NCBI RefSeq assembly: GCF_003334785.1 | Contig: NZ_QOWV01000012.1 | Reading direction: 5' to 3' (one strand) | Length of the DNA: 64,000 nt | Origin: Escherichia coli | GTDB taxonomy: Bacteria; Pseudomonadota; Gammaproteobacteria; Enterobacterales; Enterobacteriaceae | Shown: positions 52,270 to 54,995 of the stretch, one piece after another | Layout of the letters: each line of letters starts with the position of its first letter | How positions within the stretch are numbered: position 1 is the first letter of the stretch | Notes under the pieces: generated by a model | Databases searched by the model: none | What the model was told of the DNA's origin: nothing | What the model saw: only the letters and a program-made list of their open reading frames with translations | Translations under genes and position numbers: made by a program

Positions 52270-53556
52270 ATGAAACTCTACAATCTGAAAGATCACAACG
52301 AGCAGGTCAGCTTTGCGCAAGCCGTAACCCAGGGGTTGGGCAAAAATCAGGGGCTGTTTTTTCCGCATGACCTGCCGGAATTCAGCCTGACTGAAATTGA
52401 TGAGATGCTGAAGCTGGATTTTGTCACCCGCAGTGCGAAGATCCTCTCGGCGTTTATTGGTGATGAAATCCCGCAGGAAATCCTGGAAGAGCGCGTGCGC
52501 GCGGCGTTTGCCTTCCCGGCTCCGGTCGCCAATGTTGAAAGCGATGTCGGTTGTCTGGAATTGTTCCACGGGCCAACGCTGGCATTTAAAGATTTCGGCG
52601 GTCGCTTTATGGCACAAATGCTGACCCATATTGCGGGTGATAAGCCAGTGACCATTCTGACCGCGACCTCCGGTGATACCGGAGCGGCAGTGGCTCATGC
52701 TTTCTACGGTTTGCCGAATGTGAAAGTGGTTATCCTCTATCCACGAGGCAAAATCAGTCCACTGCAAGAAAAACTGTTCTGTACATTGGGCGGCAATATC
52801 GAAACTGTTGCCATCGACGGCGATTTCGATGCCTGTCAGGCGCTGGTGAAGCAGGCGTTTGATGATGAAGAACTGAAAGTGGCGCTGGGGTTAAACTCAG
52901 CTAACTCGATTAACATCAGCCGTTTGCTGGCGCAGATTTGCTACTACTTTGAAGCTGTTGCGCAGCTGCCGCAGGAGGCGCGCAACCAGCTGGTTGTTTC
53001 GGTACCAAGCGGAAACTTCGGCGATTTGACGGCGGGTCTGCTGGCGAAGTCACTCGGTCTGCCGGTGAAACGTTTTATTGCTGCGACCAACGTGAACGAT
53101 ACCGTGCCACGTTTCCTGCACGACGGTCAGTGGTCCCCCAAAGCGACTCAGGCGACGTTATCCAACGCGATGGACGTGAGTCAGCCGAACAACTGGCCGC
53201 GTGTGGAAGAGTTGTTCCGCCGCAAAATCTGGCAACTGAAAGAGCTGGGTTATGCAGCCGTGGATGATGAAACCACGCAACAGACAATGCGTGAGTTAAA
53301 AGAACTGGGCTACACCTCGGAGCCGCACGCTGCCGTAGCGTATCGTGCGCTGCGTGACCAGTTGAATCCAGGCGAATATGGCTTGTTCCTCGGCACCGCG
53401 CATCCGGCGAAATTTAAAGAGAGCGTGGAAGCGATTCTCGGTGAAACGTTGGATCTGCCAAAAGAGCTGGCAGAACGTGCTGATTTACCCTTGCTTTCAC
53501 ATAATCTGCCCGCCGATTTTGCTGCGTTGCGTAAATTGATGATGAATCATCAGTAA
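52270..53556 (+). CDS. thrC: Threonine synthase
   Basis: 428 aa starting MKLYNLKDHNEQVSFAQAVTQG. Confidence 0.97.
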   Translation: MKLYNLKDHNEQVSFAQAVTQGLGKNQGLFFPHDLPEFSLTEIDEMLKLDFVTRSAKILSAFIGDEIPQEILEERVRAAFAFPAPVANVESDVGCLELFHGPTLAFKDFGGRFMAQMLTHIAGDKPVTILTATSGDTGAAVAHAFYGLPNVKVVILYPRGKISPLQEKLFCTLGGNIETVAIDGDFDACQALVKQAFDDEELKVALGLNSANSINISRLLAQICYYFEAVAQLPQEARNQLVVSVPSGNFGDLTAGLLAKSLGLPVKRFIAATNVNDTVPRFLHDGQWSPKATQATLSNAMDVSQPNNWPRVEELFRRKIWQLKELGYAAVDDETTQQTMRELKELGYTSEPHAAVAYRALRDQLNPGEYGLFLGTAHPAKFKESVEAILGETLDLPKELAERADLPLLSHNLPADFAALRKLMMNHQ

Positions 53557-53769
53557 CATCTATTCATTATCTCAATCAGGCCGGGTTTGCTTTTATGCAG
53601 CCCGGCTTTTTTGTGAAGAAAATATGGAGAGAAACGACAGGGAAAAAGGAGAAATTCTCAATAAATGCGGTAACTTAGAGATTAGGATTGCGGAGAATAA
53701 CAACCGCCGTTCTCATCGCGTAATCTCCGGATATCGACCCATAACGGGCAATGATAAAAGGAGTAACCT

Positions 53770-54066
53770 GTGAAAAAGATGCAATCTATCGTACTCGCAC
53801 TTTCCCTGGTTCTGGTCGCTCCCATGGCAGCGCAGGCTGCGGAAATTACGTTAGTCCCGTCAGTAAAATTACAGATAGGCGATCGTGATAATCGCGGTTA
53901 TTACTGGGATGGCGGTCACTGGCGCGACCACGGCTGGTGGAAACAACATTATGAATGGCGAGGCAATCGCTGGCACCCACACGGACCGCCGCCACCGCCG
54001 CGTCACCATAAGAAAGCTCATCATGATCATCACGGCGGTCATGGTCCAGGCAAACATCACCGCTAA
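53770..54066 (+). CDS. yaaX: DUF2502 secreted protein with His/Pro-rich C-terminus
   Basis: GTG start, signal peptide ending AQA, C-terminal [30 protein letters not shown]. Confidence 0.8.
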
Positions 54067-54074
54067 ATGACAAA

Positions 54075-54215
54075 TGCCGGGTAACAATCCGGCATTCAGC
54101 GCCTGATGCGACGCTGGCGCGTCTTATCAGGCCTACGTGAATTCTGCAATATATTGAATCTGCATGCTTTTGTAGGCCGGATAAGGCGTTCACGCCGCAT
54201 CCGGCATTGACTGCA
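54075..54215. repeat. REP/BIME element between yaaX and yaaA
   Basis: gcctgatgcgacgctggcgcgtcttatcaggcctac and gtaggccggataaggcgttcacgccgcatccggca. Confidence 0.6.
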
Positions 54216-54218
54216 AAC

Positions 54219-54995
54219 TTAACGCTGCTCGTAGCGTTTAAACACCAGTTCGCCATTGCTGGAGGAAGCTTCATCAAAGAAGTAACCTTCGCTATTAAAA
54301 CCAGTCAGTTGCTCTGGTTTGGTCAGCCGATTTTCAATAATAAAACGACTCATCAGACCGCGTGCTTTCTTAGCGTAGAAGCTGATTATCTTAAATTTGC
54401 CGTTCTTCTCATCGAGGAACACCGGCTTGATAATCTCGGCATTCAATTTCTTCGGCTTCACCGATTTAAAATACTCATCTGACGCCAGATTAATCACCAC
54501 ATTATCGCCTTGTGCTGCGAGCGCCTCGTTCAGCTTGTTGGTGATGATATCTCCCCAGAATTGATACAGATCTTTCCCTCGGGCATTCTCAAGACGGATC
54601 CCCATTTCCAGACGATAAGGCTGCATTAAATCGAGCGGGCGCAGTACGCCATACAAGCCGGAAAGCATTCGCAAATGCTGTTGGGCAAAATCGAAATCGT
54701 CTTCGCTGAAGGTTTCGGCCTGCAAGCCGGTGTAGACATCACCTTTAAACGCCAGAATCGCCTGGCGGGCATTCTCCGGCGTGAAATCTGGCTGCCAGTC
54801 ATGAAAGCGAGCGGCGTTGATACCCGCCAGTTTGTCGCTGATGCGCATCAGCGTGCTAATCTGCGGAGGCGTCAGTTTCCGCGCTTCATGGATCAACTGC
54901 TGGGAATTGTCTAACAGCTCCGGCAGCGTATAGCGCGTGGTGGTCAACGGGCTTTGGTAATCAAGCGTTTTCGCAGGTGAAATAAGAATCAGCAT
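54219..54995 (-). CDS. yaaA: Peroxide stress resistance protein YaaA (UPF0246)
   Basis: 258 aa starting [17 protein letters not shown]. Confidence 0.9.

Follow-up and report, generated by a model that had tools for sequence, protein, structure and literature searches.

The analysis of a 64,000-nucleotide stretch of Escherichia coli DNA (the window) showed that the yaaX product ends in a His-rich tail, and that its His density is kept in relatives from 80 species. We speculate, with a probability of about 0.4, that this tail serves as an imidazole array that captures divalent metals and/or protons in the stressed periplasm. The result is a correct description of a catalogued protein together with a plausible hypothesis, and it neither opens nor settles a major question.

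The yaaX gene and its product

The yaaX coding sequence (53770..54066, plus strand) is 297 nt long, starts with GTG, stops with TAA and encodes 98 aa. It was supported by the list of open reading frames (ORFs), by Pfam PF10697 and by the RefSeq annotation. The Shine-Dalgarno sequence AAGGAG (53758..53763, plus strand) is located 6 nt 5′ of the GTG and was invariant in a 27-species alignment. The upstream neighbour is thrC (52270-53556, plus strand), and the downstream neighbour yaaA (54219-54995, minus strand) is convergent with yaaX. The gene was identified as yaaX (b0005), encoding a DUF2502 protein, and it occupies the thrC-yaaA position that characterises the YaaX orthologous group. A 661-nt stretch around the gene showed 100% identity to that of E. 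coli E2865, and the annotation there, "yaaX: DUF2502 domain-containing protein", bears out the name used in the initial annotation. At a coverage of at least 80%, 5415 of the 5426 complete E. coli genomes contain the yaaX region. The gene is among the first on the E. coli chromosome map and belongs to the core genome; both the gene and the DUF2502 family are already catalogued, and they are still uncharacterised.

The spacer between yaaX and yaaA contains REP/BIME-type repeats (54075..54240, no strand assigned), which are not part of the gene. The Rfam matches were naRNA4 at 47.2 and 44.7 bits, below the gathering score, and ES036 at 38.8 bits against a gathering score of 37.6. These repeats have hundreds of thousands of dispersed matches across E. 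coli genomes and probably form the 3′ end of yaaX. A strain with an alternative tail allele was missing the repeats, and its yaaA is located approximately 40 nt past the yaaX stop codon.

YaaX comprises three parts: a signal peptide, a mini-domain of approximately 48 aa rich in Trp, Arg and Asp, and a tail predicted to be disordered. The composition count of the whole protein gave 14 His, 6 Trp and 0 Cys. The predicted signal peptide (aa 1-23; 53770..53838, plus strand) has a KK n-region, a hydrophobic h-region and an A-Q-A cleavage motif, with the cut expected between AQA and AE, and it has no lipobox Cys. It was assigned as a Sec signal peptide by rule from the sequence, not by a dedicated predictor, and its pLDDT in the structural model was low. 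The initial annotation had described YaaX as secreted, which agrees with this prediction and with the n/h/c architecture common to all YaaX homologs.

The mini-domain (aa 24-72; 53839..53985, plus strand) is conserved and rich in Trp, Arg, Asp and Gly. The Pfam match to PF10697 (DUF2502; E=1.6e-13) covered aa 25-96 and model positions 1-89 of 90, which places YaaX in this family. Pfam returned no other family for YaaX, and NCBIfam returned no model, with only sub-threshold matches to the signal peptide. The core motif P-x-V-x-L-x-I-G-D-R-D-x-x-G-x-Y-W-D-G-x-x-W-R-D-x-x-W-W was located after the signal peptide at aa 30-57, and G37, G43, W46, G48, W51 and W57 were invariant in 80 species. Asp and Arg were likewise among the residues found invariant in the domain alignments. 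The mini-domain was modelled with high confidence in the predicted structure, and no structural relative was found outside the DUF2502 family.

A word-indexed search returned 158 close relatives, all from Enterobacteriaceae. An exhaustive profile search with the 48-residue domain against 1.84 billion cluster representatives returned 104 relatives only, indicating a small family, and none of the 104 has a characterised function. The distant members come from Yersiniaceae (Nissabacter, Rouxiella and Chimaeribacter), Jeongeupia, a Rhodocyclaceae genome and a gammaproteobacterial metagenome-assembled genome. In these proteins, the unit PGvSlxIGDRDxRGxYWDGxxWRDxxWW occurs once or twice and precedes low-complexity tails of various kinds. 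Many of these tails are His-rich, some with poly-Pro in addition (e.g., ...RPPPPPPRWHHGPPRGHGWGHDHGHDHGRGHGHH), and others are Gly/Gln-rich. All 24 distant relatives tested in Pfam matched DUF2502 only. The neighbourhoods examined for distant members had no partner in common, and the neighbouring genes were unrelated. In some distant DUF2502 proteins (P0138, P0144, P0177, P0185, P0200, P0205, P0208, P0211 and P0213), a two-Cys C-terminus, (H/F)CPPGQAKKGxC, replaces the His-rich end. This motif lies outside the Pfam coverage and may be a disulfide loop or a metal site.

Composition and turnover of the tail

The C-terminal 30 residues (53974..54063, plus strand) contain 11 His, the number that the initial annotation had given, and are predicted to be disordered. 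At the His frequency of the 49 long ORFs in the window (0.023), 30 residues would hold at least 11 His with a probability of 3.5e-11, and at most 6 His were counted in any 30-aa stretch of these ORFs. The pLDDT of aa 81-98 was about 51, a low model confidence compared with the high confidence for the domain.

Species-representative genomes were scanned for relatives, and 80 of the 229 loci obtained were kept, representing 80 species. The His fraction of the tail was 0.12-0.48 (median 0.27) in all 80, while the tail length was 17-48 aa. High His density was therefore conserved across the orthologs, as in a His-rich disordered region. At least 2 His were found among the last 4 residues in 59 of the 80 tails. 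The other five frames of the tail DNA had a median His fraction of 0 in four cases and of 0.125 in one. Pooled over 42 diverse members, the tails contained H 27%, D 21%, R 15%, G 11%, P 9% and hardly any hydrophobic residues, with Asp as the usual partner residue of His. This His/Asp composition is that of known Zn/Ni-binding loops. The tails of YaaX relatives could not be aligned, and it is their composition, not their sequence, that is conserved. Since the sequence turns over while the His content stays, the His density itself appears to be under selection. The fast evolution of the sequence also means that no defined metal site is conserved.

Two tail alleles occur within E. coli. The window type was found in 4029 and the PPPSPRHNKHNDHRGDHRPGPDKHHR type in 1393 of the 5426 complete genomes. 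The DNA of the two alleles is approximately 99% identical over the first 233 nt of yaaX and then abruptly only about half identical. The mosaic boundary is located just after the Pro run, and the divergent segments compared are window 54002-54063 and L020 743-804. Both tails are His-rich despite having little sequence in common, and the second allele carries PPP in place of PPPPP.

This divergence bears on a reading in which the DUF2502 mini-domain performs all of the function, for example with its Trp/Arg/Asp surface as the binding site for a glycan or protein of the envelope. The tail would then be a fast-evolving, ligand-free appendix or spacer. The mean column identity of the mini-domain is 84% (40 distinct sequences), whereas the tails are unalignable, and the length variation, the two unrelated E. 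coli alleles and the Gly/Gln-rich or Cys-motif tails of some distant members would all suit a dispensable tail. Yet a share of about 27% for one residue is not expected from neutral low-complexity drift. His is enriched in all 80 species and also in the ypeC paralog line, the His-encoding frame is never lost, and most tails have a terminal HH. We consider it unlikely that the mini-domain acts alone.

The initial annotation had also reported a PPPPP run in the C-terminal region. It was located at aa 73-77 (53986..54000, plus strand) with the codons CCG CCG CCA CCG CCG (CCGCCGCCACCGCCG). A Pro run of at least 5 residues was present in 2 of 80 species, and one of at least 3 in 9 of 80. The Pro run is essentially Escherichia-specific and not a feature of the family, and it is therefore no part of any general mechanism. 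Frameshifts at or close to the Pro codons give many YaaX database entries a hydrophobic tail (e.g., P0009 with 141 member sequences, P0016 and P0021). These entries may reflect sequencing errors or genuine pseudogenes.

Both peptidyl-tRNA profiling and ribosome profiling are reported to show a proline-related pause in yaaX (review, PMC13410324). The Pro run and the repetitive His codons might thus cause an EF-P-dependent stall that tunes YaaX output or couples it to translation status, and E. coli carries PPPPP, or PPP in the second allele. However, the scarcity of Pro runs among the 80 species argues that such a stall is not the mechanism of the family, and it would leave the His content unexplained. 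We regard a mainly translational role of the Pro run as highly improbable.

Upstream region and expression

A promoter-like block (53675..53726, plus strand) was conserved across 27 species, and this footprint suggests a putative yaaX promoter with a weak -35. It begins with TTAGAGATTAGGATTGCGGAGAATAACAAC (53675-53704, plus strand), which contains TTAGGA (53682-53687) and the -35-like ATAACA (53697-53702). The -10-like TAATCT (53721-53726, plus strand) follows after a variable spacer. A small putative stem-loop, GACCCATAACGGGC (53736..53749, plus strand), lies between the putative -10 and the Shine-Dalgarno sequence, and its CCC...GGG arms were conserved in the 27-species alignment. No useful site came out of a simple scan for promoters and terminators, and the conserved region upstream of yaaX had no match in Rfam.

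The thrC-yaaX intergenic region (53615-53769, approximately 155 nt) is almost invariant in approximately 20 enterobacterial genera and is more strongly conserved than the tail-coding part of yaaX. Its conserved blocks are GAAGAAAnTAnGGAGAAA, CAGGGAAAAAGnAGAAATTCCCAATAAATGCGG, TTAGAGATTAGGATTGCnGAGAATAACAAC, TAAnCT, the CCC...GGG stem-loop and AAGGAG. A sigma-54-like GG-N10-GC seen in some genera was rejected by eye, as the GG and GC are missing in E. coli and others. An upstream ORF (53624-53773, 49 codons), whose TGA overlaps the GTG start codon (GTGA), was also rejected as a coding region. It is probably non-coding, because its frame and overlap vary between genera and indels break the frame. 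In some genomes, an N-terminally extended YaaX is annotated through this ORF (P0036 and P0084). No convincing Fur, Zur, CusR, CueR or NikR operator was apparent in the conserved upstream block.

The published regulation of yaaX points to envelope stress. The gene belongs to the RcsB regulon with a 1.9-fold change (PMC2731931), and colicin M induced it with a log2 ratio of 4.12 (PMC3599342). A LolCDE inhibitor induced it 8- to 12-fold in a study that called it RpoS stress induced (PMC5105897). In Serratia, the promoter of a DUF2502 gene was raised by several log10 in an Rcs-hyperactive mutant, and rcsB was required (PMC8470065); this yaaX homolog is used in practice as an Rcs reporter. According to the literature, yaaX, ypeC and the Serratia homolog belong to the Rcs envelope-stress response, with RpoS named for yaaX in addition, and the Rcs control may be direct or indirect. 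The RcsB homodimer box is TN(G/A)GAN4TC(T/C)NA (PMC7913699). No such box with at most 1 mismatch was found in 53557-53770, where upstream of yaaX only direct TNRGA half-sites were present, namely TTAGA and TAGGA (the latter at 53683-53687). No metal-sensor control of yaaX, ypeC or the Serratia homolog was found in the published regulation. Two other papers mention yaaX without informative content (PMC2559885 and PMC5638813), and a search for b0005 returned unrelated papers only.

YpeC, the E. coli DUF2502 paralog, resembles YaaX in its organisation. It has a signal peptide and an EITLLPS(V/I)... domain, and its low-complexity tail terminates in the His cluster GHGHGHRH. It is also Rcs-dependent, and ypeC was 23.7-fold lower in an O157 strain with a disrupted rcsB (PMC5343319). 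Both genes have a similar element (TTAGGA in yaaX and TTAGGA/TTAAGA in ypeC) approximately 33-35 nt 5′ of a TAAT-type -10. Unlike yaaX, ypeC has a marbox to which MarA and SoxS bind (PMC5684230), its tail is rich in Gly, Arg and Trp with fewer His, and it is found at another locus, adjoining mntH/Nramp. A conserved marbox-like GCACTTTTAGCAAAAAGTGC was observed approximately 100 nt upstream of ypeC-type genes (L092, L093 and L096-L098), with TTAGGA/TTAAGA 33 nt 5′ of TAATAT.

The genomic context was also compared. A yaaX-type gene stands alone between thrC and the convergent yaaA in 75 of the 80 species loci, and also in Enterobacter, Salmonella, Kosakonia and Citrobacter. The remaining 5 loci, together with Nissabacter and Rouxiella, carry ypeC-type genes adjoining an Nramp/mntH gene. 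This adjacency was observed from Enterobacteriaceae to Yersiniaceae. The pair is convergent where the genes were called (Nissabacter and Rouxiella; L005 and L009), so it is not an operon. In the contexts examined, yaaX had no operon partner and was linked to no metal transporter, metal sensor or metallochaperone.

In one locus (L007 702-6375) of the gammaproteobacterial metagenome-assembled genome, three small lipoprotein genes precede a DUF2502 gene on its strand, and the first of the three has a weak OsmE-like match. This four-gene arrangement recurs on a second contig (L008). An ECF sigma/anti-sigma pair, accompanied by a BufA1-MbnB-HvfC-DoxX operon, is located approximately 2 kb from the DUF2502 gene of L007. 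We take this operon to be a bufferin-type copper-peptide system. It was rejected as evidence for a metal role, being too isolated (one metagenome-assembled genome).

Possible metal binding or proton uptake, and comparison with known proteins

The initial annotation had proposed that the tail pattern is compatible with periplasmic metal binding or buffering. The predicted export and the His density in all 80 species agree with this proposal, but no tie to metal homeostasis was found. YaaX matched no metal-protein family in Pfam or NCBIfam, and it was related neither in sequence nor in fold to periplasmic metal-homeostasis proteins (ZinT, CusF, RcnB and similar). The 29 papers found to mention yaaX report no metal induction or metal phenotype, and a search for literature on His-rich disordered periplasmic proteins found nothing relevant. 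Since Ni or Zn binding in vitro is common to all His-rich peptides, it would by itself be no proof of a role. The metal interpretation is reasonable but unproven, and neither the regulatory nor the genomic context favours it.

The His/Asp-rich loops and tails of metal-handling proteins, such as the ZnuA loop, the ZinT N-terminus and those of SlyD, HypB and Hpn, are known. Like the YaaX tail, these segments combine H runs with D or G, lack hydrophobic residues and are predicted to be disordered. They are found on proteins proven to handle metals or in metal-regulated operons, whereas neither applies to YaaX.

ZraP is a periplasmic Zn-binding stress chaperone of the Spy/CpxP family; it is small, exported and associated with envelope stress, and it has His-rich metal-binding ends. 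YaaX is likewise small, exported, stress-associated and His-rich, but it has no sequence or family relation to ZraP. Against the Spy/CpxP/ZraP profiles, the NCBIfam Spy model scored 12.8 bits with a cut-off of 174, and only over aa 1-28, the signal peptide. ZraP is controlled by the Zn-responsive ZraSR, whereas yaaX is reported under Rcs. Both genes appear on the same differential-expression lists of silver-adapted cusS mutants in LB, in which yaaX was differentially expressed together with zraP and cus genes (PMC10920338). The neighbouring thr genes are on the same lists (PMC10920338). This co-listing is the only metal-linked item for yaaX itself, and we consider it a weak hint. A further weak hint is a DUF2502 gene that rose together with zraP in soil (PMC10667640).

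The charge of the tail suggests another comparison. Asr, the acid shock protein, is small, Sec-exported, disordered, basic and rich in His and Lys, and it is made under stress. The E. coli YaaX tail is also rich in His, Lys, Gly and Pro; unlike Asr, YaaX contains a folded conserved domain, and the two proteins have no homology. The tail could act as an Asr-like, pH-switchable polycation that is near neutral at neutral pH and whose His are protonated below about pH 6.5. In this form it would bind anionic envelope polymers (LPS, phospholipid, peptidoglycan and colanic acid) or unfolded proteins, and it would protect against acid or envelope stress, not metal. The calculated tail charge (median of 80 species) changes from -1.3 at pH 7.5 to +5.2 at pH 5.5, the tail is predicted to be disordered, and the inducers are envelope and general stress systems rather than metal systems. 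The paralog ypeC is listed as responding when cells were rapidly acid-treated (ratio 1.3; PMC2270276), but acid induction of yaaX was not found in the literature searched. The window allele is basic at both pH values, which is unusual (+4.8 at pH 7.5 and +12.2 at pH 5.5), and its tail has one acidic residue only, in contrast to the His/Asp tails of other genera. Since it is already cationic at pH 7.5, no charge reversal takes place in this allele. A pH switch in place of metal binding seems doubtful to us, though the two are not mutually exclusive.

The resemblance of YaaX to ZraP, Asr and the ZnuA/ZinT loops appears to be compositional and functional only. By the tests applied, YaaX lies outside the Spy/CpxP/ZraP, Asr, ZinT, CusF and RcnB families.

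For the imidazole array, which we prefer, the following sequence of events can be proposed. Envelope stress, acting through the Rcs phosphorelay and RpoS, would lead to the synthesis of the small, Sec-exported YaaX. The folded DUF2502 mini-domain may direct YaaX to a defined envelope partner or location, and the flexible C-terminal tail could then serve as a multivalent, low-specificity ligand array. On entering the periplasm, Zn, Cu, Ni and Co would be bound by the tail imidazoles, with help from Asp in most genera, and the His would take up protons below about pH 6.5. YaaX might thereby buffer free metal and/or shift charge in a damaged or acidified periplasm. The retained His and Asp content, the predictions of disorder and export, and the regulation by stress agree with such an array. 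If the tail captures metals or protons, a small effector would be added to the Rcs envelope-stress response, and DUF2502 would gain a function.

A broader and more speculative scheme, to which we give only a small chance, would unite YaaX, YpeC and their relatives as an Rcs-controlled class of periplasmic "sponges". In such a class, a unique Trp-rich mini-domain would tether each protein to some component of the envelope. Once the outer-membrane barrier gives way, incoming transition metals and/or protons would be absorbed by the fast-evolving, His-rich, disordered tail. The tail dimorphism within E. coli would then reflect diversifying selection on an exposed tail.

One DUF2502 protein already carries a metal-related label in a database. 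In AFDB, the DUF2502 entry A0A0B1RBG7 from Pantoea rodasii (112 aa) bears the name "Zinc ABC transporter substrate-binding protein", and we suspect that this label was given because of its His-rich, low-complexity tail.
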